From contig DBGCPK010000005.1 of the NCBI GenBank assembly GCA_048359995.1, forward strand, positions 56,585 through 120,584: a stretch of DNA of 64,000 bases. Direction: 5' to 3'. Both the position numbers and the translations under genes were made by a program. The DNA is from Bacilli bacterium. GTDB lineage: Bacteria; Bacillota_I; Bacilli_A; RFN20; CAG-449. Below, in pieces: positions 4,665-23,195 of this stretch (the stretch's first letter is position 1; every line of letters starts with the position of its first letter). The notes beneath the pieces were generated by a model. It did no database searches. It worked only from the letters and a program-made list of their open reading frames with translations, and was not told where the DNA came from.

Positions 4665-6908
4665 ATGGAAGAAAGCAAAAAAATGAAATGGCAAAAGGAT
4701 TTTGATACTTTTTTCCCGATCTATAACTCATTTATCTTTGAAGGGTTCATTGATGATGATCAGCCATATGAAGACGAAAATGGAGAAATTAAATATTGTA
4801 GGCTTTATGACTATTTTGATAAAGTCTACAGCAATCATACCGATCCAACAAAACGTAAACGTGTAATCATCTATGATCCTACAGAATCAGATGATAAACG
4901 GTTTAAGATTTGCGATGATGATTGTATGCAAGAAGAAGTTGTCGATGAATCAGCAGACAATTTTGATGGAAAACTGAAAAAAGTCATGAATTATATGTCA
5001 TCGCAAATGTCGCAACATTTTTGGGATATAGTACATGATGATGATTTGGACATGCTTTTAATAGATCATAAATCATCTGGTCCTTCGTTAGATTTTTCTC
5101 GTATCCATTACGCTGTTACAGAGGGTAGTGGCCGTATTGCTCCATTCGAAATTCTTGATAAATTTAGAGATATTTTTAATAACCTGTTTGGTAATCCGCA
5201 AAATGGTGAACCAAGTGGGTATTTGTTTGTAATTAAAATGACATCACGTCTTTTATCGCGTGATGGTGCGTCCAACGGCTTGAGCGGTGAAGAGTTAATG
5301 ATATTTAGACAGTTGCTTAACATTGCCCAAAGTCTCGATACTGAAAGCGATAACGCCACGCAGCAACATCAAAGTAATAAGATCATCATTCTTGCAAACC
5401 AAGTGCGGGATTTGCCTATGTGGTTTACAGATGAAATTGCAAATCCGTTTATCAAGCTTATCAATGTATCAAGACCTTCTGAAGAAAATAAACTTGATTA
5501 TTTTAATGAAATGCTTGATAGCGGTTGCTTTAGTCCGCAATTTGTAGCTCGCTATAATGAGATTGATAGTGCTAGTAAAGAAAAAGATGCGCAGGCTAAG
5601 CGTAATCCAGTTGAAAAGAAATTTTTGGCGTATACAAACGATTTTAGTATGAAAATGCTAAGACGTTATAGGGCGTTTATTTCTAATAATCCTATAGATG
5701 ATCCGGCTAAATTGGGCTTTTCAATATCCACGTTCCGTGCCGGTGATATGACAAATCCTTGGGATGACGAAGACCGCATAAAGGATATGCTTAATATCAA
5801 ACAAACGGTAAGCAAAAAAATACAAGGTCAAGATTTTGCTTTAGATACTGCGCAAGCCATTTTAACAAGAGCCGCAATTGGACTTGACCGTGCTGAAAAT
5901 CCTAATGCTCCGCGGGTTATCTTATTTCTTGCCGGTCCGACAGGTACAGGTAAGACTGAACTATGTAAACAAATTGCGGAAAGTATTTTTGGCAGTGAAG
6001 ATAGAATTGTAAGATTTGATATGTCCGAGTATGGACAGGAAGAATCAGATCAAAAGCTTTTTGGTGCGCCTCCAGGATATGTTGGTTATGAAGAAGGCGG
6101 AAAGTTAACAAATGCTGTTAAGAAAGAGCCTTTTTCTCTTATCCTTTTCGATGAAATAGAAAAGGCTCATAATTCTATTCTCGATAAGTTTTTACAAATT
6201 CTTGGTGATGGCAGATTAACCGATGGCAAAGGAGAAACTGTTAGATTCACTGATTGCATTATAGTTATCACTTCAAATGCCGGGGTATTCTCGTTTGACG
6301 GAATGCCGCAGGAAGAAATCGACAAACTCATGAATGGCGATACAAAACCTGAAGGCGAAATGAATATGGACAGAGTTGCCCAGCTTGAGGAAGAATTGGC
6401 TGACGCTAATGGCAATATTTCCGAGCAATCATACTCAGAAATTTACGCAAAAGTAAAAGAACATTTAAGATACAATGTAAAGTCTTATTTCCATTGTAAA
6501 TTGAAGAGACCTGAGTTATACGGTCGTATTGAAGATTCTATAGTTTATTACAATTACATAGGAAAAGAATCAGTTGCAAAAATTGTTAAATCCAAAATTT
6601 CCGACGTAATTAAATCTACAAAAGAATCAATGAATGTTAACGATATTATATGCTCTGACGAAGTAAAAGCGGCAATTGCTCTCTATTGCCAAGATTGCAA
6701 AGTAAGAGCCTTAGGTGCGCGTGGTATTATCAAGAGTACCGGTAAATTATTCACTGGTAGCTTATCTAATTTCCTTTCTGATTATGTTCGTGGAGAGAAC
6801 GGAAAAAGTAAGGGCGATTTATCAGGAAAAACTTTAAAATGCACGTGCAACGAAATAATTTCATCGGCCTATGATATAGTTTGGAGTATCAATGATTGTA
6901 GTATTTGA
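4665..6908 (+). CDS. AAA+ ATPase with ClpA/ClpB D2-type domain (C-terminal) and unknown N-terminal region of about 400 aa
   Basis: LAGPTGTGKTELCK Walker A, a GAPPGYVGYEEGG sensor motif, Walker B LILFDEIEKAH, and LQILGDGRLTDGKGETVRFTDCIIVITSN. All are hallmarks of the Clp/Hsp100 D2 module. Confidence 0.8.
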   Translation: MEESKKMKWQKDFDTFFPIYNSFIFEGFIDDDQPYEDENGEIKYCRLYDYFDKVYSNHTDPTKRKRVIIYDPTESDDKRFKICDDDCMQEEVVDESADNFDGKLKKVMNYMSSQMSQHFWDIVHDDDLDMLLIDHKSSGPSLDFSRIHYAVTEGSGRIAPFEILDKFRDIFNNLFGNPQNGEPSGYLFVIKMTSRLLSRDGASNGLSGEELMIFRQLLNIAQSLDTESDNATQQHQSNKIIILANQVRDLPMWFTDEIANPFIKLINVSRPSEENKLDYFNEMLDSGCFSPQFVARYNEIDSASKEKDAQAKRNPVEKKFLAYTNDFSMKMLRRYRAFISNNPIDDPAKLGFSISTFRAGDMTNPWDDEDRIKDMLNIKQTVSKKIQGQDFALDTAQAILTRAAIGLDRAENPNAPRVILFLAGPTGTGKTELCKQIAESIFGSEDRIVRFDMSEYGQEESDQKLFGAPPGYVGYEEGGKLTNAVKKEPFSLILFDEIEKAHNSILDKFLQILGDGRLTDGKGETVRFTDCIIVITSNAGVFSFDGMPQEEIDKLMNGDTKPEGEMNMDRVAQLEEELADANGNISEQSYSEIYAKVKEHLRYNVKSYFHCKLKRPELYGRIEDSIVYYNYIGKESVAKIVKSKISDVIKSTKESMNVNDIICSDEVKAAIALYCQDCKVRALGARGIIKSTGKLFTGSLSNFLSDYVRGENGKSKGDLSGKTLKCTCNEIISSAYDIVWSINDCSI

Positions 6909-7425
6909 TGAACAATTAAAAGAAGCGCTTGAAAACGCCCAAAAGCTAAAACTGGCGGGAGAAGAAGAACTTTCAAAACAAATGTGTTTAAAATGCGTTG
7001 AGAAAGTTGCGTTATATAATGGCATTGATTTGATTTCGCTATTTTATGAGGACAAAGTATATGACGAAATAAAGGATGTGCCAGATGCTTTAAAGTACAT
7101 TTTTATAGCAAAATGCGCAATGAATGCGTATGACTTAATTTACTCAAAAAATCCGGCGAGCGATTCCGCATCTTCGTGGGCCAAGTGTGATAAAAACAAT
7201 AGCAATAGACCGCTTAGAGGTTTTTTTGAATGGTTACAAAGACGAAATCGATCAGTAGAAGAAAGGGATTGCAACCAATTCAAAATTCTGATCAATGCAA
7301 TGGTTGATTCTGACAATATTTATTTTAAAATGTCAGACCGAGTTGCTCAGTTGCCTTTAGTAGATATATTGAGCATGATAGTATCTGGTTCAATTACCAT
7401 TACTTCCGACGGAGAACTAAGATGA
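6892..7425 (+). CDS. Hypothetical protein (177 aa)
   Basis: ORF overlaps the upstream gene by 17 nt and the downstream gene by 4 nt (translational coupling); no recognisable motif. Confidence 0.55.
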   Translation: MIVVFDEQLKEALENAQKLKLAGEEELSKQMCLKCVEKVALYNGIDLISLFYEDKVYDEIKDVPDALKYIFIAKCAMNAYDLIYSKNPASDSASSWAKCDKNNSNRPLRGFFEWLQRRNRSVEERDCNQFKILINAMVDSDNIYFKMSDRVAQLPLVDILSMIVSGSITITSDGELR

Positions 7426-9191
7426 TTAGCGTAGTAAGATGTAGTAATAGAATGTGTATACAACTCCCAAAGGGTGTTACATGCAAGATTGGGGATATAA
7501 TTCCTTGCCCTAAAAGTTGTACATGCTTCAAAAAAGTTGAATCATTTTCCGTGGCGTCGGTATGGCAAATGGATGAAAAAAAATCCAGCAGTACGGCCAA
7601 ATATTCTGATGAGGAAATTAGAGCATATTGGGGGCAAGAGAATACGTCATCAGCTTCTTCTACCGATAGTGATATGCAAAGTTCAAATGTAGGCGTTAAC
7701 TCGTCCAATACTGCTTTGGGTGTAGAGCGACACGATAATAATCAAGTTGTAGCGAATGCCAATGAATTTGTAAGACAAAAGTCTTTCGGCAGATCACAGC
7801 GTTCTCAGTCCAATAGTGTTCCCGAAGCCGATGCAATATTGAGACCGCAAGAAAATTATGAAAAAATTGAGATTGGTGGTATGCAATTTACTGATAAAAT
7901 GACGATACTATCGTCGGAAATATCGCAGCCTCTCAGAAATGCTTTGTGGTTTATTTTCTCGCATTGGGAAACTCGTTCAGTTTTTAAAACAGAAACAGAA
8001 TTACGTGATGATTTTATTTGGTTGATAACATCGACTTCTAAACGCACTTTTAAGAAAAGTGAAATTGATGCAATATTATTAAATGAAGAATATGGACTTT
8101 CAGAAAAGTTCTTTTATTTGTTTTACGATATTATCTATCGCTACGAGCCGCCTAAAGGGTTTTACTGGTGCGATAAAGTTCTCTCACCTGATCCTTTAAG
8201 CTCATATTTTAGAGATAAAAAAGATTTTGTAGTTAAGTATTGTAATGCATACGCACAAGGCGAGCAATTTCGTTTGTTTTACATGGCACATAAAAAGGAA
8301 ATTTTACACTTTTTAGGCAGCGATAATGAAGAAAAATTGTTTGAAGACATGACATTATCTTTAGCTAAAGATGTCGGAGAAATTGTATTGATAGATAAAT
8401 ACAATAATTACATGCCGATAAATATGGGTAAGATTTCTTCGTTTATTATTAACATGCAGCAGCCAACTGAATTAAACAACATGAGAAACATGGTTAATTT
8501 TTTGGAAAAATATCGTGTAACACGACTTGGCGTTGTTCCTAGAGCTATTGAATACCCGTTCGAAAAATCTGTCAGGGATGATTTACAAGAAGATGTCAGT
8601 ATGTATGCAACTCTGCGATTAAACTCTTCTGCAAGCTACGCATCGGAATATGATTGCTTTGTGACACTCTTACATGAATATGTTAAGGTATTTAATCCCA
8701 GTGAAATTAAAATAGGTGAATTAACATTTACCCAAAGCAATTTTTCTCACGAATTAGAAGAAATTGTAAAAAACCTTTGCAAATCTTATTTTGGACAAGT
8801 CGCAGATGATGTGTTTGCAGACTATAAAAGTCGCGCATGGCTTGCGAAAAGCATATATGACAGGAACATTTTATCGACATATGTGTTAGAAAATAAATCC
8901 TACGTCGATAAGCTTATGAAACTAATTTCTAATCCAACATTAGAGCAATATATATCAATGTTCGATGATTGTGTTATTCAGTTGCATTATAGAGATTTAA
9001 CTATTCATGAATATATTGCAGAATTAGTGAAAGAAGATATTTATACGGTGTGTGGAGAATTTAGAGAAGACAATATTATTCATGAATTCTTCAATTACAA
9101 AATAAAAAATTGGTCTAAAACAAATTTGAGTGAACTGTTTAATAAATATCAGCGGCAATATGAAGCATTCATTAAAGGAGACATACTATGA
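7422..9191 (+). CDS. Hypothetical protein (589 aa) with Cys-rich N-terminus and Ser-rich linker
   Basis: ATGA overlap with the upstream gene. The N-terminus CSNRMC..CPKSCTC suggests a small metal-binding motif, followed by a low-complexity S/T-rich linker and a globular region. Confidence 0.6.
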   Translation: MISVVRCSNRMCIQLPKGVTCKIGDIIPCPKSCTCFKKVESFSVASVWQMDEKKSSSTAKYSDEEIRAYWGQENTSSASSTDSDMQSSNVGVNSSNTALGVERHDNNQVVANANEFVRQKSFGRSQRSQSNSVPEADAILRPQENYEKIEIGGMQFTDKMTILSSEISQPLRNALWFIFSHWETRSVFKTETELRDDFIWLITSTSKRTFKKSEIDAILLNEEYGLSEKFFYLFYDIIYRYEPPKGFYWCDKVLSPDPLSSYFRDKKDFVVKYCNAYAQGEQFRLFYMAHKKEILHFLGSDNEEKLFEDMTLSLAKDVGEIVLIDKYNNYMPINMGKISSFIINMQQPTELNNMRNMVNFLEKYRVTRLGVVPRAIEYPFEKSVRDDLQEDVSMYATLRLNSSASYASEYDCFVTLLHEYVKVFNPSEIKIGELTFTQSNFSHELEEIVKNLCKSYFGQVADDVFADYKSRAWLAKSIYDRNILSTYVLENKSYVDKLMKLISNPTLEQYISMFDDCVIQLHYRDLTIHEYIAELVKEDIYTVCGEFREDNIIHEFFNYKIKNWSKTNLSELFNKYQRQYEAFIKGDIL

Positions 9192-11092
9192 GCTCAATCG
9201 ATAAATATGTTGAAGGTGAAGCCAGATCATACAATCCTAGAGTTAATGTTGTAAAAAGGGGTGGTATGATAAATGGTTATATCGGTGGCAATTTAGTTTT
9301 TTCAATCGCAGACCGATATGGATATTTAAGCGATTCCGAACGCAGTACGATTAGAAACTCAATTCACGAGTATGAGGCAGAAGAGCAAGAGCGTATAAGA
9401 AGAGAACAAATACGCATTGAAAATGAACGCGTCGCTGTGCGAAATGCGCTTAGAAGCTCTGTAGTAGCTACAAAAAATAAAATTAGAGAATCATACAGTA
9501 ACGCTCAACGGGTAAGTCAAGAAGTAGCATCTTCATTGAGCGTTAAGTCAGTTTTGGATTCATTTAAAAAATATAATATTTCTTCATACATAGAACGTGC
9601 ACAAATTTTGGATCGCAAATTAAAAAGTTGTGTAGAGAGATTAGATGGTGAATACAGAAAAAAAATGCAAGAAGTCGAGTCGCTTGAAAGAACAATACGT
9701 GAAGATTCGACGAGACAGACATATATTCAACAGCAGGATTCCTTAAAGAAAATACACGTAAATTTTACTAATGTTGAATTTCCTGTTTCGGAAATTGAGC
9801 AATTAAAGTTTGAAATTGAAAAACTCAGAGAAGCTATTTTGAAAATCGAAAACATCGAAAAAGAACTTAGCAACGTGGCCAATGATGGGCTCATAGGCTC
9901 AATTGCTGCATCAGCTCTTAAAGAGATTAGACAGTTCAATATTAGTTCATTGGATGATGTAAATAAACTCCTTATTAGTGTTCAGGAACATCTTGGTGAA
10001 ATTCGCAATTTGAAATTTCACCAACAAAGCAAGGAGAGAAGCGATCAAATTGCTTTGTTAAACGGTATATTAAAATCGTGCTCGCAATTGCACGAATATT
10101 TGATTAGCCAGCCCTATGAAGCTACAAATAATCGTAGCGAAATAGTTGAGACAGCTAATCGGGTCTTAGGTATTTATTCAGAACTTGATACAGCTACTTA
10201 TTCTACATGCAGCAAAGAAAAAATTAAAGATGCATATGAATTGGTTCAAGAGGTGTTGGTTGGCTCGGCATCTAATGCTCAAACTCTTGAGTATTTAAAA
10301 CGGTTGCTTGAAGAAGGATTTGTATTTAAGCGCGACGACCAGCTTCAAGCAGATAATTATGCGGACTATATAAAAAAATACAACGAAATGATTGAACGCG
10401 GCGTGTCGATCGAAGAAATTGAAGTTTTTGATCCAATTAATTATTCAGAGCAAAAAAAGCGTCTCAATGAAAAACTGCTTGGATTAGATGTTCAAGAGGG
10501 AATAAATAGAACGCGCACGTCCTTTATGATGGCTTGGAAAGTTATGGAGGATATGGGATATCGTCTTCTGTATCAAAATATGGGAAGCGAAGGCGCAGAC
10601 GCATTAGCTTGCGAAGGTTTATTTGTTAAACCCGGTTATGAGGGGGTTGTATGGCAAGTTGTTGCTTCAGATTGCAATATAACTCGAAAGATAATAGGCG
10701 TTGAAAGGACAAGCGGTTTATCTACTTCAATCCAAAGAGTTAGAGAAGTCGCAGAAATAACAGAGCGCGACGGTGAAGTACAGGAATTCTTTGAGCGATA
10801 TGCAGAAGAAGGCGGTGGTGAACTTCTAGTCACAACTGATGTATATACTGGTTCTCCGGAATGCGAGCAAGCTATTCAAAGCAATGGATGTTTCAAGCTG
10901 TCAGAAGAAGGCGAAAAATGTTTAGATAAATTAGTGGAAACCGATGATGAGAATGCTAAAAAGAAAGGGCGCTCTCGTCTTAGAGCAGGAGAAGGAACAC
11001 CAGTCCAAACTCACGGAGTATCTCATAGTGTGCGTGAACAAGAGTCGCTGAGCGCTAATTCTAGAATAGTTGCCCAAAGAGCTAAGAAGTAA
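9188..11092 (+). CDS. Hypothetical protein (634 aa), coiled-coil rich
   Basis: ATGA overlap. Long heptad-like E/K/R/L-rich stretches and no catalytic motif. Confidence 0.6.
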   Translation: MSSIDKYVEGEARSYNPRVNVVKRGGMINGYIGGNLVFSIADRYGYLSDSERSTIRNSIHEYEAEEQERIRREQIRIENERVAVRNALRSSVVATKNKIRESYSNAQRVSQEVASSLSVKSVLDSFKKYNISSYIERAQILDRKLKSCVERLDGEYRKKMQEVESLERTIREDSTRQTYIQQQDSLKKIHVNFTNVEFPVSEIEQLKFEIEKLREAILKIENIEKELSNVANDGLIGSIAASALKEIRQFNISSLDDVNKLLISVQEHLGEIRNLKFHQQSKERSDQIALLNGILKSCSQLHEYLISQPYEATNNRSEIVETANRVLGIYSELDTATYSTCSKEKIKDAYELVQEVLVGSASNAQTLEYLKRLLEEGFVFKRDDQLQADNYADYIKKYNEMIERGVSIEEIEVFDPINYSEQKKRLNEKLLGLDVQEGINRTRTSFMMAWKVMEDMGYRLLYQNMGSEGADALACEGLFVKPGYEGVVWQVVASDCNITRKIIGVERTSGLSTSIQRVREVAEITERDGEVQEFFERYAEEGGGELLVTTDVYTGSPECEQAIQSNGCFKLSEEGEKCLDKLVETDDENAKKKGRSRLRAGEGTPVQTHGVSHSVREQESLSANSRIVAQRAKK

Positions 11093-11685
11093 TGCAGATA
11101 GAAAGGGCTATGCTAGGGATAAGAACTTTAGGTCCCGGCAATAGATTTGTTATTTGGGTTAATGGTTGCTACCGTAAATGTGCTGGTTGCGTTTCAAAAC
11201 GCTTACAAGCTTTTAACCCTTTTAATGAGCAAGACGTTATTAAATATATATCGCAATTTAGCTTGAGTGAGATTGCCGGGGTAACTATATCTGGGGGAGA
11301 GCCTTTTGAACAGTATACAGATTTATGCAAAGCCGTTAAATACTTTAATCAACAAGGCATTGAGGACATCTTAATTTATACTGGTTATACTTTTGATGAG
11401 CTGAAAGATAAAAAAAACGCAGAGATTAATTACATTTTAGAACACATCGCTGTTTTAATTGATGGTCCGTATGTTCAAAAACTAGATAGTGGATATGGGA
11501 ATCTAAAGGGTAGCGATAATCAAAGAGTAATCATTTTAAACCCCAAAGTAAAACGGCTATATGTTGAGTATTATAGTCCGACTCGAACAATGCAAGAGTT
11601 TTATATCGGCAATATAGTTTTGGCAGCAGGTATTCCCGATGAAGATTATATTAAGAAATTTAGAAATGCAAAAGGAGATCAATGA
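11092..11685 (+). CDS. Radical SAM protein, NrdG-like (anaerobic RNR activase family) small activase
   Basis: DGPGNRFVIWVNGCYRKCAGCVS contains CxxxCxxC and closely parallels the NrdG motif GPG..SGCxHxCPGC. Also a GGEPF SAM-binding motif; 197 aa. Confidence 0.7.
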   Translation: MQIERAMLGIRTLGPGNRFVIWVNGCYRKCAGCVSKRLQAFNPFNEQDVIKYISQFSLSEIAGVTISGGEPFEQYTDLCKAVKYFNQQGIEDILIYTGYTFDELKDKKNAEINYILEHIAVLIDGPYVQKLDSGYGNLKGSDNQRVIILNPKVKRLYVEYYSPTRTMQEFYIGNIVLAAGIPDEDYIKKFRNAKGDQ

Positions 11686-13691
11686 TGGCAGACTCAACTT
11701 TATGTACCGCTGAATATTATTTTGAGTACAAAATTGAAAGAGTTTCTGGAGATGAAAAAGCGATAAAGACTCCTAAAATTTATTTTGAGAGAGATTACCG
11801 CACCTCAAATCTTCCATATACGATGTTTGCAGTTCCTGAAGAATGGTTAAATCAACAGGATCTTGTGAATAGTCTTAAGGGCGAAACAGATGCCGAGACA
11901 GTCAAAAAGATACTCTCAAAATTACCATATGACACGATAAACGTTGTGTTTGATATTAAAGGCATAGCCTGCGCACCTTTAGGCGATGTTAAAAGTATTG
12001 AATACGAAAAAGCAGAGATTCACTTGCCTGATCAAACATTTGAAAAGTTTTATCAAGCAGGTTGTCGTCTTACAATTGAAAACAATAATTCCGAAGATCA
12101 TTCAGGAATAGGTGTCATTGAGATGATTAAAAATAAAGTTACAGTAGCAAAATTTTTCTTTGCCGTCAACTTTACGTTCCGAAAAGATATATCTTATGAA
12201 TTAGAAGTTTCGGGTAAATCTGTAAACATTGAATTTAAATGTAAAGACCGTCCTACTGGTATAGAGGTCGTCATTGTATATAACAAGGATAGGCTTCCTT
12301 GTTTATGCAACGATATGGGCGTTAATATGGTAACGTCGCCGTTTACTTTGGATTTCTCCAAAGGTGAGACATTTCGCAAGACAATACCACTAACAGGTGA
12401 AGCTGCAGCGCAAGGGAATATTTTCTCTATTGCAATAAGAAATCGGCAAATGGCCAAGTATTACATTCTAAATTGCGAAAAGAATACATCTCTTCCGAAT
12501 CAAAGCGATAAAAAAATCAAATCGACTGTTAGCTATACATGTCCATTTTGTCATAAGAAGATAAATTATAGTATTTCAAAAAGCGCCAGATACAAAAAAG
12601 GTGGTACATCGTGTAGCTCAATTGAGGATGCAAAAAGCGGTAAGAAGATACCCACAATTTATAACAAACACAAGGCCAAAGTTAAAAAATGTCTGTTCTG
12701 TTCTGAAGATTTAATGGTAAAAGATAACTCTAGTTTTCAAGATTTAAGAAGACGATTGCTCCCGCTCTCATTCATGGAGCACGACAATTATAAAATTGCT
12801 TTTGCCGGTTCAACAAGAGCTGGTAAGACAACTTATATTTCCAGGTTCTTTGGTATCTCAGGTGACACAAGAATTAGTATGCCAATGACAATGGCTACAA
12901 ATAGCCTAAAACGTTTTGGAATCTATATTAAGTCTGCACCGATACTAGAAGTTAAAAGGGGTACTGAAGGTTATCAATTAACGGACACTAATTGGCCAGA
13001 TATTCAGAAAGAATACATAGAACGTTCAATAGACCTAAATGCAAAAAAATATCCTGAAAGAACTACGACTGGTGATTATACATCATATCCTTTTATTGCT
13101 GAAGTAAACGATAACGCTTATATTTCCTTTTATGATATTGCCGGTGAAGATGCACAGCATTCTATGCTTATTAAGAACATTGCAAATGGTGAACTTATAG
13201 GAATCTTTTGTTTAATTAACGGAAAAACAGATATCGGTGGCAATAGTGATGTTATTAATATGTTAAAGGGTGCAGCACAGAAAGATAAAGACAAGCGCGA
13301 TGATGTTGTAGTTGATAAAAGGTGCCCAATAGCAGTGGTAGTTACAAAAATGGATATGTTAGAGCCTGAATTTGATCCGAATTGTCAATGTTTAAGAAGT
13401 GACTATTTTGATGGCGGCACAATATATGAAGGCAGTGAAATTGAAAGAGTCATAAATATTTCAAGTGAAGAAATTAAGTCGTATTTAAAACAGCATGCAT
13501 TATTGCCGGAATTTGAAGGTTTATATGAGAACGTAAAATACTTCGGGGTTTCATCATTCAATTTTATGGACAGCATACATAATAAGTTGGAGGATATAAA
13601 TACGCCAGGAAAAGTTAAATTTGAATGTTCATCAAAACGAATGGAGCTTCCTTTCCTGTGGATGCTTAAACAATTTGGTGTAATTAGATAA
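11682..13691 (+). CDS. P-loop GTPase (TRAFAC class) with N-terminal domain containing a Cys4 zinc ribbon
   Basis: G1 AGSTRAGKTT, G3 DIAGED and G4 TKMD in the correct order and spacing. An upstream CPFCHKK...CLFCSED Zn-ribbon. Confidence 0.7.
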   Translation: MMADSTLCTAEYYFEYKIERVSGDEKAIKTPKIYFERDYRTSNLPYTMFAVPEEWLNQQDLVNSLKGETDAETVKKILSKLPYDTINVVFDIKGIACAPLGDVKSIEYEKAEIHLPDQTFEKFYQAGCRLTIENNNSEDHSGIGVIEMIKNKVTVAKFFFAVNFTFRKDISYELEVSGKSVNIEFKCKDRPTGIEVVIVYNKDRLPCLCNDMGVNMVTSPFTLDFSKGETFRKTIPLTGEAAAQGNIFSIAIRNRQMAKYYILNCEKNTSLPNQSDKKIKSTVSYTCPFCHKKINYSISKSARYKKGGTSCSSIEDAKSGKKIPTIYNKHKAKVKKCLFCSEDLMVKDNSSFQDLRRRLLPLSFMEHDNYKIAFAGSTRAGKTTYISRFFGISGDTRISMPMTMATNSLKRFGIYIKSAPILEVKRGTEGYQLTDTNWPDIQKEYIERSIDLNAKKYPERTTTGDYTSYPFIAEVNDNAYISFYDIAGEDAQHSMLIKNIANGELIGIFCLINGKTDIGGNSDVINMLKGAAQKDKDKRDDVVVDKRCPIAVVVTKMDMLEPEFDPNCQCLRSDYFDGGTIYEGSEIERVINISSEEIKSYLKQHALLPEFEGLYENVKYFGVSSFNFMDSIHNKLEDINTPGKVKFECSSKRMELPFLWMLKQFGVIR

Positions 13692-13703: not shown

Positions 13704-16184
13704 ATGATACAATATCTTTATTTTCATACTGGCAAAGAATATGTTTCAAAACTTAGTCTTGGAAGATCCGAGGAAGGCTACTCGGACAATGAAATGCTTT
13801 TTGAAACGGTTCGAAAATCCGTGGAAGGGAATACATTTACATATGCGCCTGTTGGTAGTGAAGATGCGATTTTTATGCAAGCTTCAAAAGGTCCGGATGG
13901 CTTATTTACAAAAGGCTTAAGGGGTAACATAGGCGCCATTTCGAATGCTCCGGCAAAATACATAGATAAGTTTGAGAAAAATCCGTTACCAACCTATTGC
14001 AATTCAGAAAAATTGCCTGAAGGGGAACTTCCACCTATAGGCAGACTTCAAGATGACTTCTCATTGGCAAGAGATTTGCATCATATTTTTCCCAAATTAG
14101 TTGATATTCTTCTTTTTGGAAACACAAGTAAAAACATAGTAATTTTGACTGAAACACCTTTGAAAGCTATGAACTATATTAAAGTTCTAAGTGTGCTTTT
14201 GCCATTATCTTTTATGAAGAAAATCGGCTTTTGCATCGGCGCAGCCAATATCCCTGATGAAGATTTTTCTATCATAAAAAATGATGGAAATACTGAGTCA
14301 TTATCTATACGTATTTGGCTTCCAGAATCAAGAAATTATATTTTTGAGTCTCTAGCATCATATTACTATGTATTTGATACTAGAGCGCAAGGTGAAAACT
14401 ATCGTGATAATTACAATCAAGAGCTTAGTACAACAGCTAAGGTTTTAGATGAAATAAATCTCTGCGACCAAAATCAAACAAAGAGGTTTTCTGACTATAT
14501 AGCAAGTGCATTTGATTCACATGGTAATTTGAATGCCGCAGTCTTAAAGAGAAACTCAGCATTGTTCATGTTTGAAGTCAAGCGGGATGTAGATTCTGCA
14601 AAGGAAATTTTGAATATGGGCTTCGATGGGGGCGATATACAAGAACATGCATTTACACGAGCAGCCTCAATATTATTACGCCAAGAAAATATTCAATATT
14701 TATCACTACAAAATAAAAATGCGATAGTATTGGGATATAAAAAGAACAATCGTATTGCTCAAGAACTTGAAAGCTCTTTATTTGACTATTTGTCAACCAC
14801 ATATGCATCACTCGTGCCCGATGAGAAAAAATTGTTTGCCGAAATGGTCTATAATGACGTATCTGGCAAACGGTTGAATTCCTATTTAAAAAAATCGCTA
14901 CGCGGTGATTTCCAAGCAAGAGTAGATGCATTTGATTTTTCAAGTAAAATTTTAGATGTCGCGTTAAAACAGTCAGGCAATAATCTATACTCGATTAAAG
15001 ATTTGGTTAAGACAGTAGTGGAATTCTTTGATATTGGTGATTGTTTTAGAATCATTCCACCTGGTCAAATGACATCAGGTGAAGCCTTCTTTAACTGCAT
15101 TCCACAGTATGAGAGGACTGAGTTACGGCAACTTATGACGGCCATATTACTTTCTTCTGCATACAAAAAATTGGTGCCGGAAGATCATTGTGAAATCAGA
15201 TTGAGAGGTTTTAAAAAGATATTGCCCAATATCGATGAGAAACATATAAATCAGTTTGAATTCATTTTGGGAGTAAGAAATAAAATTCTTGAAATATCGG
15301 AGTTAATACCTGAATTGGATATTGAAAATCAGTTTGATTTCTTATTTAATATTAAGTTCGGTGAATTTTTTGTTTCAGAATTTATACAGAGGCTATCCGT
15401 TGAAGAAGCGTTAGATGCAGAAAAGCTTGTAAAAAGTCGTACATCACAACGATTATTTTATGAGAGTATGTCTACTGCGATCAGAGCAAAATTATTGGAT
15501 ATTAAATTTGTCAAAAAACATATAAAAAGTGGAGCCGTCGCATCTGAACGATACATAGAATTTTTCAGAACATTACCCCAAGACAAAAAAAGTGAAGCCG
15601 CAGAGATTGATTCATATCTTTCCGAATTGAATCACGAGTTTGACATTAATGAAGAATTCGGCCATTATCGTTATGGTTTTGCTCAGGAATGTTATAATAC
15701 ACTTTCTGCTGATAACCAAAACGAAATTAAACAGAGTATAAGTCAACGAAAAGCAAAAGATACATCATTGGATGAGAGATTACTTTTTGTTGAAGAGATA
15801 ATACGCGTTTTTGGTACGATTAAAGGACATAAAAGAAAAGGAAGACTTTCATATTGCGGCATATTCTTATGGGCTTTTGGGTTTAGCCTATTGTCTATGC
15901 TAATCTTGAGTCTTCCTGCTATTATTTTTCCGGCAAGTTTGGGAACGTGCGATTCCGCACATATCTTGGAAAAGTTTATATATTACTTTAAACCGTATTT
16001 ATTGGCTTTGCCTGTTTATGTATTTTTGCTTGAACTGGTAATTTATTTTTGCTTTAAACAAGGCAACAGATTGAAAAGAGCAAACATTATTACAATTCTT
16101 TGTGGAATACTTCCGATAGTGATTTTTACATTATCCTGTGTTTTCTTCTATTACATTAGAATTGATTTACCTTTTAGTCTGTAA
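13704..16184 (+). CDS. Large hypothetical membrane protein (826 aa), soluble N-terminal region plus about four C-terminal TM helices
   Basis: C-terminal 150 aa consists of hydrophobic helices (GIFLWAFGFSLLSMLILSLPAIIF, YLLALPVYVFLLELVIYFCF, IITILCGILPIVIFTLSCVFFYYI). Confidence 0.6.
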   Translation: MIQYLYFHTGKEYVSKLSLGRSEEGYSDNEMLFETVRKSVEGNTFTYAPVGSEDAIFMQASKGPDGLFTKGLRGNIGAISNAPAKYIDKFEKNPLPTYCNSEKLPEGELPPIGRLQDDFSLARDLHHIFPKLVDILLFGNTSKNIVILTETPLKAMNYIKVLSVLLPLSFMKKIGFCIGAANIPDEDFSIIKNDGNTESLSIRIWLPESRNYIFESLASYYYVFDTRAQGENYRDNYNQELSTTAKVLDEINLCDQNQTKRFSDYIASAFDSHGNLNAAVLKRNSALFMFEVKRDVDSAKEILNMGFDGGDIQEHAFTRAASILLRQENIQYLSLQNKNAIVLGYKKNNRIAQELESSLFDYLSTTYASLVPDEKKLFAEMVYNDVSGKRLNSYLKKSLRGDFQARVDAFDFSSKILDVALKQSGNNLYSIKDLVKTVVEFFDIGDCFRIIPPGQMTSGEAFFNCIPQYERTELRQLMTAILLSSAYKKLVPEDHCEIRLRGFKKILPNIDEKHINQFEFILGVRNKILEISELIPELDIENQFDFLFNIKFGEFFVSEFIQRLSVEEALDAEKLVKSRTSQRLFYESMSTAIRAKLLDIKFVKKHIKSGAVASERYIEFFRTLPQDKKSEAAEIDSYLSELNHEFDINEEFGHYRYGFAQECYNTLSADNQNEIKQSISQRKAKDTSLDERLLFVEEIIRVFGTIKGHKRKGRLSYCGIFLWAFGFSLLSMLILSLPAIIFPASLGTCDSAHILEKFIYYFKPYLLALPVYVFLLELVIYFCFKQGNRLKRANIITILCGILPIVIFTLSCVFFYYIRIDLPFSL

Positions 16185-16201: not shown

Positions 16202-17155
16202 GTGGCTAGTAATAAAAAGAAAGATAAAGCAATAGGCGCCTTTTCAATTATCGCCATCATTCTATGTGTTTGCGCACTTTGCCTTGGCTTCATAAAAAGT
16301 CAGTCTGAAGATTTGTACTTCAATCTTGAAAAGGCAAAACAGGTTGAAATATCTAGTATCGAAGATATCATTGCATTAGGTGAAGCAATCTACAACGATG
16401 AGTGTGTTCTAACCAAAGATATTCATATTACTGAAAATGGTTTTAGAATCGGAACAACTAAAAGACCGTTTGCGGGAACATTTGACGGTAGAGGACATAC
16501 TATATATTTGGATTACAATTTCGCTAATCAAAATACATCATTATTTAGCTGTATTGAAGCTTCTGGAGTGATTAAGAACACTCGATTTGTATTTGGCAAT
16601 ATAGCGGTTGAGGGTAATACATTTGGTGGCATTGCGAAGATCAATTACGGAACAGTTCAAGATTGCAAGATTGAATGTGCAGATATCAAAATCGATAATA
16701 ACATAGGTATCTATTCACCTTGTGTGATAACCAACAATGGTACGATAGCAAATATAGTAGTGGATTGCTCTTTTTCTAATTCACAAATATATGACAATGA
16801 AGCATCGATATTATTTGGCGGCATATGTACATATAATTATGGAACTGTAAAAAATTGCATTGTTGCCCCGACATTCAATAACATTGTTTGCTCGGATGAA
16901 TTTAAGATTCTTGTGGGAGAAACAACTAATGTTGGAGTAAGTGCAATTTGTGCAGTAAACACGAGTGAGGCATCAACTACTAACTCGGTGGCAATTCTAC
17001 AAACCGGTGTATATACTTCAGACAAGAATAGTGGATTAAAAATCGCTAGCGATTATAGTAGTATTACCAATGAGGACACGATTTTCTTTGATTTGGATTT
17101 CAATAATCGTGTTTGGGAAATTCAAAACAATAAACTAGTTCTTATAGAGGGTTAA
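16202..17155 (+). CDS. Membrane-anchored surface protein with parallel beta-helix-like repeats
   Basis: GTG start preceded by GAGGAGGG. N-terminal signal-anchor helix. GTFDGRGHTIYLDY-type repeat motif, followed by N/G/T-rich beta-strand repeats. Confidence 0.55.
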   Translation: MASNKKKDKAIGAFSIIAIILCVCALCLGFIKSQSEDLYFNLEKAKQVEISSIEDIIALGEAIYNDECVLTKDIHITENGFRIGTTKRPFAGTFDGRGHTIYLDYNFANQNTSLFSCIEASGVIKNTRFVFGNIAVEGNTFGGIAKINYGTVQDCKIECADIKIDNNIGIYSPCVITNNGTIANIVVDCSFSNSQIYDNEASILFGGICTYNYGTVKNCIVAPTFNNIVCSDEFKILVGETTNVGVSAICAVNTSEASTTNSVAILQTGVYTSDKNSGLKIASDYSSITNEDTIFFDLDFNNRVWEIQNNKLVLIEG

Positions 17156-17159
17156 GAAT

Positions 17160-20100
17160 ATGAACGACAAAATTACTGCAAAGAATGGAATAATTAAGAT
17201 ACTTTCAATTATCGTTGTTGCGATATTAGCAATTGCGGTAACTGTTATTGGCATCTTATTGCTCAATAAAGATTCAAACACTGAAAATGCAAGCTATAGC
17301 ATCATTGTCGATGATGAAATTACAATATATGAGGGAGATACATTTACTTTAGTTCCATATTTGGTAAACAAGGATGGAACGGTAGTTGAATCTCGCTTTG
17401 ATTATTCGGCATCTGATAAGGCTATATCTGTTAATGTTGACGGTGTGATTTCCGTAAACTCAATTCCCGAAAATGATGTCCACGTATCAATTTATGAGCG
17501 CAACACGTCTACAACTGCTGAAGTAAACGTTAATATCGTCGGTAGACTCACTAAAGTCTTGGGCATTACTTTCAGCGATTTAGCTGGAAATAAGATGTTG
17601 GTGTCGGGCACACAGAATTTAAAATTAGGTGAAACTTATATCATTGACGTAGTGACTGAACCACGTAATGTCGAAATTGAGAATTATTGTCTTTTGCAGG
17701 CTCTGAATTCGAGCGGTACTGAAAAGAATGTATTTGAATTTGCATACACCAAAACTAATGTTAGTATGACGGCAGTTGGTCTTGGATCTGGAACATTGCT
17801 GCTCGATATAACAAATGACGATAATCAGTCCATATACGATACTGATTTCGATTTTTCCGTCTCGATGTCTGATGAGAATCTTAGCGAAGAGATACTGAAT
17901 AGTACTAATACAACTTTATTATCAAAAGAAGAGCTTAACAAAATTGAAAAAGTTGAGTTGAGTCAAAATGTTTCAAATTTAGATGGTTTACAAAATTTAA
18001 CATCATTAAAAACGGTTGTATTTACAGCTGATGAGGTAATGAATATTGAGAATATCTCTCAGAACTATTGTTACAGAATTAAAACAAATTTGTTTGAGAA
18101 TTATCTAGATGCGAATAATTGGGCAGATTATTTAAAATGTATAATTCCTTATGAAGAAAGTGCTGATGAACTTTTTATTGTATATCATAATGCAAAGACT
18201 GCAACAGGAGAGGAAAATGTTGTATATGAAAGGTTAGAGAATATTGCAAATTTTCCTACTTATATTTTTGAGGGATATACGAATTTTGGATGGTTAGATG
18301 GAACCGAAACAGAGGTATCTTTATCTCAAGTTAAGGCTTCCGTAAAGAGTAATGGCATACATTTATATGCCGGTTGGAATCCTATATCATATAAAGTTGT
18401 TTATCACATTAGAGATTCTGAGGTCGCTAACAAAGAAGAGATCTTTTATTACGATACAGAATATTTACTTAAAGTGCCTAACGAGATTGATAGTTCAATA
18501 ACTCATACTGGATATAAATTTGCTGGTTGGACACGTAATAGAAATTCAAATACTTTCTCACCTAATGTGCAATTTAGGAATGGCGACGCTATCTCTAATT
18601 TAACTAGCGAAGCTGATGCTATTATAGATTTGTATGATATTTGGGAGCCAATAGAATATACGGTTATTTTTTCATCTGTCGAAGGGATGGAAGAGATTGC
18701 AGACCTTACAGCAAAATATAATACAGCATATACGTTACCGACACCATCTAGACCCGGTTATGCATTTAATTATTGGAAGCTTAATAACGGAGATATATTG
18801 AATGCAGGGATACAAGATCCTAACCTTGATTCCGAATTAAATTTATCAAGTATTGAAGGCGCAGAAATAATTCTTACTCCAGATTTCACTGAAATAACCT
18901 ATACAATAACATTTAGGCTAAATGGAGGTCAAGCCCTTCAGGATCTGTCATTTGTAGATGGATACAGAAAGACATTGTATTATGAGGAAGAATATACTTT
19001 ACCCTATTTAACTAAAGAAGGGTATACGAGATATTACTGGCTTTGTGCTGAAAATGGTAAACAATATAAACTAGATGAGAATAACAAAGGACCAAAACTT
19101 TTACAAGAATTTACTACAGCATGCGAGGTAACATTCTCTGCGGTTTGGACGTCAGCAGAATACAGTATTAATTATGATTGCAATGGTGGTAATATTGCCG
19201 GAGATAGTTATGTGACAGATACAAGATTTTGGGACGATGGTGGTTCCTTGTTAACGCCTCAAAGAATAGGATATACTTTCGTAAAATGGCAAGATATTGA
19301 TCATGAAGATATTAGCTATGTTCCCGAAGATGCCGGATGGACAAGCAACTTAATTAAGTCTGCGCAAGAGGATGGTGCCGAATTCAATTTTAAAGCCGTA
19401 TGGCAAATAAATTACTACGATCTCACTATATCAACTGGTGCGGGAACTAGCTTATCTGTTAAAGTAAACGATCAAACTAAACTTGACGGTACGTATAGTG
19501 TCGCATATAATAGCACAATTACTGTTAGTTATAGTGCAAATACAGGGTATAGTAATGCCGAATGCACTTTCCCTGGCGGTAATATGCCTGCTAATAATCT
19601 AACAATAAAGTCTAGTGCTACAATCAATAAACATAATGTAACAATCATTATTGGCAGTGGCTCATATATGACTGTAAACATAGGCGGGACATCATATTCG
19701 AACAACCAAACAGTTAAAAATGTAGCTTATGGAACTTCAATTTCTGTTTCAAACTATGGTGCTACTAACGGTTATCATGACGGTTGGGCTTCATGCGATT
19801 ATAGCACGATGCCGGATTATGATATTACAGTTAGCTCTGGAGCTACACCAGATTCATGTTTTACAAAGGGAACAATGTTAATGCTAGGAGATGGGACTTC
19901 AGTTGCCGTTGAAAATCTCAGAATCAACGATATAATTTTAGCATTTGATCATTCCACGGGACAGTATGTTGAAAGTCGAATACTTTATACTTATTATGGC
20001 TACGATTATGTACCGTCAATTGAACTATATTTCTCCAATAAAGCAGTTCTCGAATTCTTAAATGTAGGACATGGTCTTTTTGATGCTACGATGAATGAAT

Positions 20101-20543
20101 ATGTTCTCATTAACGCTAACAACGTGCAAGAATATGTAGGACATGAGTTCTTATATACAAGCTTTATTGACGGCAATTTTGTCGCTAATACAGTCAAATT
20201 AGAATCTTACATTGTTTCGAGCAAATTAGTTGAACGTTACGATATTGTAACGGAAAGCACATTAAATCATATTGCCAATGGATTACTTGCATGCTCGGAT
20301 ACATTGGTAGGAATTTGCAATATGTTCAAGTTTGATGATGACTTTACTTATGACATTGTGCAGTTGCAAATCGATATAGAAACATACGGATTATATACGT
20401 ATGATGAATGGAGGAAATATATATCATATGAGGATTTTGTTTCTTTCAATGGTGCATATTTTAAAATTGCCGTAGGAAAGGGATTAATAAGCGTAGATGA
20501 AATATTATCGCTTCTTGATGATTTGTCTGAAAATCGCGCATAG
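17160..20543 (+). CDS. Large surface protein: N-terminal TM anchor, Big_2-like Ig domains, LRR-like segment, multiple Listeria-Bacteroides (Flg_new) repeats, C-terminal Hint domain plus about 80-aa extension
   Basis: Repeated Y.I.YD.NGG...P.R.GYTF.GW units. Hint hallmarks CFTKGTMLMLGDGT, VGHGLF and YDIVTESTLNHIANGLLA. Confidence 0.75.
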   Translation: MNDKITAKNGIIKILSIIVVAILAIAVTVIGILLLNKDSNTENASYSIIVDDEITIYEGDTFTLVPYLVNKDGTVVESRFDYSASDKAISVNVDGVISVNSIPENDVHVSIYERNTSTTAEVNVNIVGRLTKVLGITFSDLAGNKMLVSGTQNLKLGETYIIDVVTEPRNVEIENYCLLQALNSSGTEKNVFEFAYTKTNVSMTAVGLGSGTLLLDITNDDNQSIYDTDFDFSVSMSDENLSEEILNSTNTTLLSKEELNKIEKVELSQNVSNLDGLQNLTSLKTVVFTADEVMNIENISQNYCYRIKTNLFENYLDANNWADYLKCIIPYEESADELFIVYHNAKTATGEENVVYERLENIANFPTYIFEGYTNFGWLDGTETEVSLSQVKASVKSNGIHLYAGWNPISYKVVYHIRDSEVANKEEIFYYDTEYLLKVPNEIDSSITHTGYKFAGWTRNRNSNTFSPNVQFRNGDAISNLTSEADAIIDLYDIWEPIEYTVIFSSVEGMEEIADLTAKYNTAYTLPTPSRPGYAFNYWKLNNGDILNAGIQDPNLDSELNLSSIEGAEIILTPDFTEITYTITFRLNGGQALQDLSFVDGYRKTLYYEEEYTLPYLTKEGYTRYYWLCAENGKQYKLDENNKGPKLLQEFTTACEVTFSAVWTSAEYSINYDCNGGNIAGDSYVTDTRFWDDGGSLLTPQRIGYTFVKWQDIDHEDISYVPEDAGWTSNLIKSAQEDGAEFNFKAVWQINYYDLTISTGAGTSLSVKVNDQTKLDGTYSVAYNSTITVSYSANTGYSNAECTFPGGNMPANNLTIKSSATINKHNVTIIIGSGSYMTVNIGGTSYSNNQTVKNVAYGTSISVSNYGATNGYHDGWASCDYSTMPDYDITVSSGATPDSCFTKGTMLMLGDGTSVAVENLRINDIILAFDHSTGQYVESRILYTYYGYDYVPSIELYFSNKAVLEFLNVGHGLFDATMNEYVLINANNVQEYVGHEFLYTSFIDGNFVANTVKLESYIVSSKLVERYDIVTESTLNHIANGLLACSDTLVGICNMFKFDDDFTYDIVQLQIDIETYGLYTYDEWRKYISYEDFVSFNGAYFKIAVGKGLISVDEILSLLDDLSENRA

Positions 20544-22305: not shown

Positions 22306-22325
22306 TTTATTTTGAGGGAAAGTAT

Positions 22326-23193: not shown

Positions 23194-23195
23194 CA

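Follow-up and report, generated by a model that had tools for sequence, protein, structure and literature searches.

The operon and its genes

The region under investigation lies within a 64,000-nucleotide stretch of contig DBGCPK010000005.1 (hereafter the window), and positions are numbered from its first nucleotide. Contained on the forward strand is an operon of ten genes, which was previously undescribed and is found only in uncultured gut Clostridia. The order of the genes is fixed, and the operon is intact in 15 of 17 genomes. Its first gene (3621..4661) encodes a transglutaminase-like thiol peptidase. The second (4665..6908) specifies a conserved ClpB/ClpV-like AAA+ ATPase with a single AAA_2 module (2.4e-42) and an unknown N-terminal region of ∼370 residues. 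This ATPase matches both DolB of Dodola (2e-21) and the PADLOC candidate PDC-M37B (2e-26), which are ClpB-like defence ATPases, but the likeness is that of the AAA+ module only, and it is not accompanied by any further Dodola or PDC-M37 partner. There follow three conserved genes with no family match (6892..11092), which code for proteins of 177 (6892-7425), 589 (7422-9191), and 634 residues (9188-11092). An NrdG-like radical-SAM activase is encoded at 11092..11685 (Fer4_12, 8e-31; NrdG TIGR02491, 1e-27, the latter below its cut-off). Its stop codon overlaps the start (ATGA) of the GTPase gene at 11682..13691, the subject of this analysis, and the two genes are adjacent in this order in 15 of 17 loci as well as in a remote one, L009. 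No glycyl-radical enzyme partner is recognizable in the operon. The 634-residue protein was considered as a glycyl-radical substrate and rejected, as a conserved C-terminal motif of the RVxG type is lacking among five homologues.

Always positioned directly downstream of the GTPase is the gene for an 826-residue protein with three predicted C-terminal transmembrane segments (13704..16184). The next gene (16202..17155) is a conserved member of the operon that codes for a predicted surface protein of 317 residues with an N-terminal transmembrane or signal segment. The last protein (17160..20543, 1127 residues) likewise begins with a transmembrane or signal segment and contains a Hint domain as well as Listeria-Bacteroides (Flg_new) repeats; across genomes it ranges in length from 899 to more than 4400 residues. 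The variant locus L010 has trypsin in place of the peptidase, a classic AAA protein in place of the AAA+ ATPase, and an LRR_5 protein in place of the Flg_new protein. A homologue of the 317-residue protein is retained there (BLASTP, 2e-18). L010 and two further loci, L017 and L027, lack the radical-SAM gene but retain the GTPase and the protein downstream of it. No recognized toxin or nuclease effector was identified in the operon.

The earlier note on this DNA had counted three distinct NTPases in the cluster. That count is correct for the island, on which the AAA+ ATPase and a VirD4-like ATPase are the sole other proteins with a Walker A motif, but not for the conserved system. The VirD4-like module occurs in the window and in 3 of 17 scanned loci, and is accessory, lying outside the conserved operon. 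A NusG paralogue, a TetR protein, and a resolvase, encoded upstream of the operon, belong to this island only and are not conserved in that position elsewhere.

A search of 1.84 billion proteins yielded 326 representatives of the GTPase at E≤1e-3. Given these and 83 full-length homologues that share 28-90% identity with it, the open reading frame and its motifs are not due to chance. Carriers were observed in 17 of the 185,579 species genomes scanned, and all of those with a full-length gene are uncultured MAGs. They belong to the abundant, uncultured animal-gut Clostridia (Christensenellaceae, Coproplasma, Oscillospiraceae), some of which carry the system in a patchy distribution. The GTPase gene sits on a low-GC island that was horizontally acquired. 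No copy of the system was matched by tblastn in phage and plasmid records.

Domain architecture and conserved motifs of the GTPase

Read from position 11682, the GTPase contains 669 residues. The second ATG, at 11685, is the likely start, which would give a protein of 668 residues, since a GGAG sequence (11674-77) precedes it by 7 nt and other annotations of this gene give 668 residues, with public gene calls beginning at the second ATG. The AF2 model of the protein has a pLDDT of 89.9 and a pTM of 0.90. Residues 1-275 (11682..12506) form a β-rich domain that includes an Ig/FN3-like β-sandwich and is not found in the canonical DO-GTPases described below; this domain did not figure in the earlier account of the N-terminal half. 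A comparison of it with the 200-235-residue protein encoded upstream of the canonical DO-GTPases, as a possible fused counterpart, gave an hhalign E-value of 0.045 with a probability of 1.2%, which does not support the proposal. Following this domain is a putative zinc-binding module (residues ∼283-345; 12528..12716) and then a TRAFAC GTPase domain (residues ∼360-669; 12759..13688). The latter is distinguished by a family-specific insert of ∼40-70 residues between G1 and G2 (residues ∼391-460) and by a C-terminal ELPFxWML motif.

Residue conservation was counted over 172 full-length members of the family. The P-loop, or G1, is GSTRAGKTT (residues 376-384; 12807..12833), in which Lys 382 is invariant (172/172) and Gly 376 and Gly 381 are retained in 170 and 171 members, respectively. 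The G3, or Walker B, motif is DIAGED (residues 485-490; 13134..13151). Here Asp 485 is conserved in 172/172 members, Gly 488 in 171/172, and Glu 489, which occupies the position of the catalytic Gln of Ras, in 154/172. TKMD (residues 555-558; 13344..13355) represents the guanine-specificity motif G4, with Lys 556 kept in 166 and Asp 558 in all 172 sequences. A candidate G2 residue, Thr 461, is present in 159/172 members and Ser 624 of G5 in 165/172. G1 to G5 accordingly take the forms GxxxxGKT, Thr, DxxGE, TKxD, and SS/SA, and occur in that order in a TRAFAC-class fold. The earlier note had proposed a TRAFAC-class GTPase preceded by a zinc ribbon at 11682-13691, on the basis of GSTRAGKTT, DIAGED, and TKMD in canonical order in the C-terminal half and of CPFCHKK and CLFCSED in the N-terminal half, and had named a lack of motif conservation among homologues as grounds for refutation. 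All five sequences are present as described, and the alignment of 172 members reveals that the nucleotide-binding motifs are conserved.

The zinc ribbon itself required revision. CPFCHKK corresponds to residues 287-293 and CLFCSED to residues 337-343. Both cysteines of CPFC are conserved (Cys 287 in 167/172 members, Cys 290 in 166/172), and His 291 is conserved in the close family. The second CxxC, on the other hand, is not a conserved knuckle, for its first cysteine, Cys 337, is found in just 63/172 members. Cys 311 (151/172) and Cys 340 (158/172) complete the conserved set, such that the zinc site is most likely constructed from Cys 287, Cys 290, Cys 311, and Cys 340 and not from two CxxC pairs. 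Outside of this putative site, Cys 187, Cys 207, and Cys 570 are also conserved in the family. Taken together, these features mark the protein as a genuine GTPase-type switch, predicted to bind GTP and equipped with a putative zinc-binding module.

Relationship to the DO-GTPases and to other families

No assignment for the GTPase was obtained in Pfam, NCBIfam, PADLOC, or PHROG searches, and a sequence search of the PDB returned a single match, FANCI, which at E 0.12 is noise. Its placement in a family rests on profile-profile comparison. When a profile of the GTPase domain was run against 5.8 billion proteins with hmmsearch, it retrieved two proteins labelled by Pfam as DO-GTPases, P0221 (E 3.7e-15) and P0222 (E 1.5e-12), both of which score above the Pfam DO-GTPase gathering threshold. 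Alignment by hhalign gave 99.2% and E 1e-19 over 267 columns for P0221, and 98.1% and E 1e-13 over 323 columns for P0222. P0222 is a DO-GTPase2 protein, and its alignment extends from the CPxC zinc module, with CPFC placed against CPFC, to the C-terminal ELPxxW motif. Residues ∼281-669 of the GTPase, namely the zinc module and the GTPase domain, therefore align end to end with the DO-GTPases.

A role in the control of bacterial conflict systems was predicted for the "double-GTPase" family by Kaur, Burroughs, Iyer & Aravind in 2020 (PMC7159879). According to that work, a Walker B Glu is the hallmark of the family, about 60% of its members carry one or two zinc ribbons on the N-terminal side of the G domain, and two paralogous GTPase genes occur in 38% of the systems (Kaur et al. 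2020, PMC7159879). Of these hallmarks, the Walker B Glu (Glu 489) and the N-terminal zinc-ribbon-type module are found here. The GTPase shares with DO-GTPase1/2 (PF19975/PF19993) the TRAFAC fold, the glutamate of DxxGE, a CPxC-type zinc module directly N-terminal to the G domain, and the motifs [ST]KxD, FFG[IV]S[AS], and R.ELP..W.L, the last at the C-terminus. It differs in its extra N-terminal domain of 275 residues, in the G1-G2 insert, and in falling below the Pfam thresholds. Indeed, the query itself is not matched by the Pfam DO-GTPase models even at E≤1, but 15 of 43 family members match DO-GTPase2 below threshold (best 4.3e-4), and a distant member, P0110, reaches 2.6e-5 (24.4 bits, where the cut-off is 27).

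The genomic settings can be compared in a similar manner. As in DO-GTPase systems, the gene directly downstream codes for a large protein whose transmembrane helices are at its C-terminus, and further products of the operon include a chaperone-type ATPase, a peptidase, and a repeat protein that is hypervariable. The nearest type is that of the GAP1-N2 conflict systems of Firmicutes and Actinobacteria (PMC7159879), which have been described with C-terminal transmembrane segments on GAP1 and with a hypervariable repeat protein; the P0221 locus is an HSP70/vWA/GAP1-N2 system. The next-nearest relatives of the GTPase, from Lachnospiraceae and Ruminococcus, sit in a tubulin/vWA theme, and a phmmer comparison of the operon with a tubulin-type system revealed the GTPases as the sole related components. 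Unlike DO-GTPase systems, the operon carries a single GTPase gene: neither the survey of Walker A proteins on the island nor phmmer (one GTPase per locus) disclosed a paralogous second gene. FNIII, GASH, tubulin, HSP70/GrpE, vWA, and kinase components are likewise missing, with no Pfam match to an FNIII-repeat or GASH protein, and in their place are the ClpB-like AAA+ ATPase, the transglutaminase-like peptidase, the NrdG-like radical-SAM activase, and the Flg_new/Hint protein. The hypervariable Flg_new protein (LRR_5 in L010) fills a role analogous to that of the GASH/FNIII-repeat protein.

The 826-residue downstream protein is only weakly GAP1-like, in contrast to the partners in DO-GTPase systems. 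The sole recurrent Pfam match of its family is GAP1-M, seen at a fixed position in 11 of 16 members, always below the gathering score (best 2.4e-4). By hhalign the family is collinear with nine proteins in the GAP1 position (E 0.0018, with probabilities overall of 1.7-15%), and E is 0.029 against one true GAP1-N2 protein. The sensitivity of the models is limited, for the protein in the GAP1 position of a canonical tubulin-type system (L039) also has no Pfam match. The downstream protein of L010 displays no detectable similarity to the GAP1-like family and is therefore a fast-evolving one. From these comparisons and its position, the 826-residue protein is a candidate for the GAP1 counterpart of the GTPase.

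It might be argued instead that the GTPase is a housekeeping enzyme, or an independent TRAFAC lineage of the Roc/Arf/Gα or YcjX type with only generic P-loop motifs in common with the DO-GTPases. Weak Pfam matches to Roc (34/43 family members), Gα (9/43), and MMR_HSR1 (11/43) point in this direction. The closest solved structures, Arl13B (4m9q), a Loki RagA-like protein (8yl2), CIN4/Arl2 (9edr), and Sar1 (1m2o), all belong to the Arf/Sar/SRβ/Rag/Gα branch. The identities to that branch are only 12-22%, however, and the GTPase has Glu rather than Gln after DxxG, TKxD rather than NKxD, a large insert before switch I, and an additional C-terminal helix motif, N-terminal domain, and zinc module. 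The Roc match in the query covers the P-loop only (residues 371-392), whereas the DO-GTPase alignments (E 1e-13 to 1e-19) span the entire zinc module and GTPase domain and include the non-generic FFG[IV]S[AS] and R.ELP..W.L motifs. The bacterial stress GTPase YcjX (6nz4), whose partner is the membrane protein YcjF, lacks a zinc module, resides in a different operon, and was related to the GTPase at the sequence level in no search. GIMAP/AIG1, dynamin-like, and Era-like families, suggested previously as the nearest, are not borne out: LeoBC matched the N-terminal part of the G domain only (E 0.0086, 13 bits), Dynamin_N matched 2/43 family members at 0.03, AIG1 did not rank among the 25 families that recurred most often out of the 60 matched, and the DO-GTPases are nearer by profile comparison. 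That the protein is not a housekeeping GTPase, as the reading in the earlier note requires, agrees with the absence of any NCBIfam or Pfam match to Era, Der, Obg, YihA, or translation factor models and with the location of the gene on a low-GC island and its restriction to some gut Clostridia. An independent or housekeeping origin is thus highly improbable.

A possible function and its alternatives

In our estimation, with a probability of roughly 0.6, the protein is a far-diverged DO-GTPase switch of the TRAFAC class in a GTPase-centric conflict operon, for defence or competition, of a new theme. The suggestion that GTPases of this kind recur in conflict systems finds its counterpart in the DO-GTPase family (PMC7159879), to which homology is demonstrable. 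Signatures of such a system include the fixed gene order, the low-GC island, the variable repeat protein, the gene swaps in L010, and the DolB/PDC-M37B-like ATPase. The DO-GTPase systems are themselves computational predictions, and no experimental study of any of them was found in the literature searched.

A mechanism may be envisioned as follows. The invariant Asp of G4 suggests that the protein binds GTP, and Glu 489, standing in for the catalytic Gln of Ras, would assist in its hydrolysis. The protein would alternate between conformations as a switch and, with a single copy encoded, would probably do so as a homodimer. Its partner would be the ∼800-residue protein specified immediately downstream, whose C-terminal transmembrane helices could connect the switch with the membrane and with the two predicted exported proteins (the 317-residue and Flg_new/Hint proteins). 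On the cytoplasmic side, the switch may gate the ClpB-like AAA+ remodeller, the transglutaminase-like peptidase, and the NrdG-like activase. Extended to the complete operon, this scheme leads to a tentative proposal, namely that the operon constitutes, in gut Clostridia, a self-contained machine for transmembrane signalling or effector action, in which a DO-type switch is obligately coupled to the NrdG-like radical-SAM protein. The hypervariable Flg_new/Hint protein and the 317-residue protein would sense or execute events at the cell surface, and the membrane-anchored GAP1-like protein would relay these inward, licensing radical chemistry as well as the processing of the three unknown cytoplasmic proteins by the AAA+ ATPase and the peptidase.

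A rather unlikely alternative is that the operon has no immune or conflict function but builds, exports, or anchors the giant Flg_new/Hint and 317-residue surface proteins, with the GTPase as an assembly or targeting switch, comparable to SRP/FtsY or the MglA-type polarity GTPases, and the ClpB-like AAA+ ATPase as an unfoldase. The two N-terminal signal/transmembrane segments, the membrane anchor on the neighbor of the GTPase, a rigid gene order as in machines, the VirD4/TrwB-type coupling ATPase that follows in the window and in 3/17 loci, and the absence of a classical toxin or nuclease effector are all in keeping with it. Yet the specific relatives of the GTPase are the DO-GTPases of tubulin/HSP70/vWA systems rather than SRP or secretion GTPases, and no core gene was matched by a secretion-system family. 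Furthermore, hypervariability of the repeat protein, and its LRR_5 substitute in L010, fit diversification of a sensor or effector better than a fixed cargo, and the island was acquired horizontally and has a patchy distribution. It is still less probable that the GTPase and the NrdG-like activase alone constitute the functional unit, the former serving as a maturation or gating factor (substrate delivery or presentation, or cluster or SAM access) and the remaining operon as the substrate(s). The overlapping stop and start codons, the adjacency in 15/17 loci and in L009, the three conserved cysteines outside the zinc site, and the lack of a recognizable glycyl-radical partner would accord with such a pair. 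Against it, the GTPase and downstream protein persist without the radical-SAM gene in three loci, and canonical DO-GTPases have no such neighbor. The known metallocentre GTPases (HypB, CobW, MeaB) are moreover of the SIMIBI and not the TRAFAC class.

If the proposed coupling of the DO-type switch to the activase is correct, it would provide the first link of glycyl-radical-type activation to a GTPase-gated conflict system. The DO-GTPase systems represent a large class of predicted prokaryotic conflict systems. The clade described here extends the family past current Pfam detection, and its compact, rigid operon brings in a radical-SAM partner that was not expected, along with components for which surface exposure is predicted. 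With its fixed gene order, the operon is a good candidate for wholesale transplantation, which would allow for the first experimental test of DO-GTPase switch function. The substrate of an NrdG-like activase with no glycyl-radical enzyme nearby could be sought in the same way. Given that the carriers are abundant uncultured Clostridia of the animal gut, the system may be of importance for phage or competitor interactions in that environment.

The GTPase and its conserved residues

The open reading frame at 11682-13691 (+) encodes a protein of 669 residues, and the motifs reported in the earlier note are all located within it, namely GSTRAGKTT (G1, residues 376-384), DIAGED (G3, residues 485-490), TKMD (G4, residues 555-558), CPFCHKK (residues 287-293), and CLFCSED (residues 337-343). 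The stop codon of the radical-SAM activase gene overlaps the first ATG of the GTPase gene (ATGA). The spacing of a GGAG at 11674-77 suits the second ATG, at 11685, better than the first, and public gene calls give a 668-residue product. There are 83 full-length homologues (28-90% identity, none named), and when 1.84 billion representatives were searched exhaustively with a profile, 326 relatives were recovered at E<=1e-3, of which 110 reached E<=1e-30; thus the reading frame is not a chance one.

Residue conservation was counted over 172 full-length members aligned to the family HMM. The P-loop lysine, K382, the Walker B aspartate, D485, and D558, the guanine-specificity aspartate of G4, are each invariant (172/172), and thus the motifs upon which the earlier note based its TRAFAC assignment are indeed conserved among homologues. 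Also retained are G488 (171/172) and the glutamate E489 (154/172) of Walker B, K556 of G4 (166/172), the candidate switch-I threonine T461 (159/172), and S624 of G5 (165/172). Motifs G1-G5 of the TRAFAC G domain are intact, and the Walker B glutamate occupies the position of the catalytic glutamine in Ras. The cysteine module upstream of the G domain contains four conserved residues, C287 (167/172), C290 (166/172), C311 (151/172), and C340 (158/172). The two CxxC knuckles originally proposed for it do not both hold, however, since C337, the first cysteine of CLFC, is kept in only 63/172 members, and the module is better described as a CPxC...C...C four-cysteine site. It presumably binds zinc.

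The AlphaFold2 model, calculated from a 43-sequence alignment, is confident, with a pLDDT of 89.9 and a pTM of 0.90. It contains a β-rich N-terminal region (residues 1-275), a poorly structured cysteine-rich stretch (residues ~283-345), and an α/β G domain (residues ~360-669). Strands 471-475 and 479-485 are predicted to pair as a hairpin that enters Walker B, which fits the antiparallel strand that defines TRAFAC GTPases. Sar1, RagD, MglA, SR-β, and G-α were listed in the structure comparison, and the solved structures are all distant, with 9-22% identity among the top 60.

Relationship to the DO-GTPases

None of the curated libraries searched provided a name for the GTPase. A scan of 43 aligned homologues at lax thresholds yielded weak Roc matches in 34 and DO-GTPase2 matches in 15, with the Roc match in the GTPase itself limited to the P-loop. 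A distant family member, P0110, scored 24.4 bits against DO-GTPase2, for which the cut-off is 27. In the definition of Kaur, Burroughs, Iyer and Aravind, DO-GTPases belong to the TRAFAC class and conserve a glutamate in Walker B; N-terminal zinc ribbons, either one or two, are present in approximately 60% of them, and a gene for GAP1 comes after the DO-GTPase gene (PMC7159879).

A G-domain profile combining close and remote family members (A2) picked out, from 5.8 billion sequences, two Pfam-labeled DO-GTPases with E-values of 3.7e-15 and 1.5e-12. Both of these comparison proteins, P0221 and P0222, scored above the Pfam gathering score when rescanned. With hhalign, the G domain aligned with P0221 over 267 columns (99.2%, E 1e-19), and the full-length family alignment matched P0222 over 323 columns (98.1%, E 1e-13), the ends of this alignment being the zinc-module CPFC (query 281) and the C-terminal R.ELP..W.L motif (query 658). 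On the basis of these profile alignments, residues ~281-669 are homologous, end to end, to a zinc-ribbon DO-GTPase. Two additions are peculiar to the clade, the first 275 residues and an insert separating G1 from G2.

In a species scan employing one genome per species, full-length matches were found at 17 loci, all in metagenome-assembled genomes of uncultured gut Clostridia (Candidatus Coproplasma, Christensenellaceae, Oscillospiraceae, Candidatus Scatosoma, Ornithoclostridium, and Eubacteriales). Matches confined to the G domain occur at 16 further loci in Lachnospiraceae, Ruminococcus, Hungatella, and Lachnoclostridium. Neither the phage nor the plasmid records searched contained a copy. 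The P0221 locus, with HSP70, HSP70-vWA, three DO-GTPase2, GAP1-N2, and TPR genes, conforms to the HSP70 theme of Kaur et al. (PMC7159879). One of the 16 loci matching in the G domain alone, that of Lachnoclostridium sp. An14 (L039), displays the Firmicute tubulin theme, with two proteins of the Tubulin_2 family, a DO-GTPase2 (30.8 bits), a vWA protein, an 808-residue protein in the GAP1 position, and an FtsK/SpoIIIE ATPase (L039:15299-18508).

The protein encoded immediately 3' of the GTPase (13704-16184) contains 826 residues and three C-terminal transmembrane segments. It invariably comes next after the GTPase, and at ~730-830 residues in the family is comparable in size to the GAP1 proteins of canonical loci (808-909 residues); C-terminal transmembrane helices are likewise reported for many GAP1-N2 proteins (PMC7159879). 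GAP1-M is the sole recurrent Pfam family among its homologues (11/16, residues ~110-170), the best E-value being 2.4e-4, below threshold. Two hhalign matches also fall below the accepted threshold: residues 99-217 of the downstream family against 132-246 of a true GAP1-N2 protein, a segment that begins right after the N2 domain (E 0.029), and columns 63-179 against 82-211 of nine GAP1-position sequences (E 0.0018, probability 15%). Note that the An14 protein in the GAP1 position (L039:10918-13344) itself has no Pfam GAP1 match at E<=0.01, and thus the Pfam models miss part of their own family. With every match below threshold, these results lean no more than tentatively toward the downstream protein being a GAP1.

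The ten-gene operon and its surroundings

Gene content and order are shared by 15/17 full-length loci, each with ten genes. These encode a transglutaminase-like peptidase (3621-4661), a ClpB-like AAA+ protein (4665-6908, +), proteins of 177, 589, and 634 residues, the NrdG-like activase (11092-11685, +), the GTPase, the 826-residue protein, a 317-residue protein (16202-17155, +), and a Flg_new-repeat/Hint protein (17160-20543, +), the last two each with an N-terminal transmembrane or signal segment. The AAA+ protein, ClpB/ClpV-like, has a single AAA_2 module following an uncharacterized N-terminal region of ~370 residues, and its PADLOC matches are to PDC-M37B (2e-26) and Dodola DolB (2e-21).

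The 317-residue protein is present in all operon variants, including L010 (BLASTP 2e-18), and its sequence is suggestive of a β-helix-like surface protein. Pfam, NCBIfam, and PADLOC gave no match for it, and a PHROG of unknown function is hit only weakly (1e-4). Many short, repeat-like motifs containing Gly and Asn are observed in it. The Flg_new/Hint protein varies from 899 to >4400 residues across genomes (for example, L006:14233-20788 and L022:15415-21972), and its architecture resembles that of Hint-processed polymorphic toxins or adhesins. A Hint domain is located close to the C-terminal end (in the window, Hom_end_hint 0.0025), and the L003 homologue has a Pfam Hint match.

Three loci, L010, L017, and L027, retain the GTPase and the downstream protein and lack the activase. 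At L010 the GTPase (L010:10001-13270) has an N-terminal extension of ~390 residues, and the accessory genes encode giant LRR_5 proteins, a Sel1 protein, a trypsin-like peptidase, and two AAA ATPases, one classic and one RuvB-like. N-terminal extensions of 400-700 residues occur in several other family members. In their organization the operon and its variants match what Kaur et al. describe for their conflict systems, where the core stays constant, accessory modules are exchanged, and the repeat protein is hypervariable (PMC7159879).

With respect to the three NTPases originally assigned to the cluster, the AAA+ protein belongs to the core operon, whereas the VirD4/TrwB-like ATPase (23196-24506, PADLOC mad8 1e-14) does not. 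It lies in a co-directional module (20579-26047, +) encoding DUF2225, 366-, 178-, and 114-residue proteins, the ATPase, and a 514-residue transmembrane protein, a module seen after the operon in the window, L014, L018, and L019 alone; at other loci unrelated housekeeping genes are found there. As the canonical tubulin-type system also closes with an FtsK/SpoIIIE-family ATPase, a possible parallel, FtsK/HerA-superfamily ATPases may be recurrent optional partners.

The operon resides in a low-GC island (~2000-28000; 33-37% versus 42-48% in the flanks) with a serine recombinase (1395-2054, -) at its left edge. A NusG paralogue (2393-2968) and a TetR regulator (3038-3571) lie just 5' of the operon; neither these nor the recombinase are conserved there in other genomes. 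The genes for a DUF3990-like protein (26707-27180, -; weak PADLOC PDC-M10A/M13 matches) and an HTH_3 regulator (28004-29026, +) occupy the right edge of the island, its lowest-GC stretch (29%), and may constitute a separate small defense or toxin-antitoxin-like module.

Possible function of the system

The GTPase would function as a GTP/GDP conformational switch, probably as a homodimer given that each operon has a single GTPase gene. It could dock onto the membrane-anchored downstream protein, and in so doing couple the predicted surface proteins to the cytoplasmic AAA+ remodeler, the peptidase, and the radical-SAM enzyme.

Alternatively, though this is less likely, the operon might be a biogenesis machine for its surface proteins. 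That the GTPase is dedicated to the radical-SAM enzyme is more doubtful still. The activase, with its CxxxCxxC cluster motif, lies immediately 5' of the GTPase gene at 15/17 loci, as well as at that of the remote relative L009, but the variants lacking it keep the GTPase. It matches Fer4_12 (8e-31), and its 97 bits against the NrdG equivalog model are well under the 126-bit cut-off; no glycyl-radical enzyme or RVxG-type motif was evident in the operon, nor any such enzyme nearby. Finally, an unrelated TRAFAC lineage is very improbable in light of the P0221 and P0222 alignments.

The DO-GTPase family and the general logic of its systems were already known from one comparative-genomics paper (PMC7159879), and no experimental work on them was found in the literature searched. 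What is new is a GTPase clade overlooked by current family models, with an additional N-terminal domain, a modified zinc site, and a single-GTPase arrangement, together with a rigid ten-gene operon theme combining a ClpB-like AAA+ protein, a transglutaminase-like peptidase, an NrdG-like radical-SAM protein, and a Flg_new/Hint protein. This theme differs from the tubulin, HSP70, and kinase themes of Kaur et al., among which it is absent (PMC7159879).
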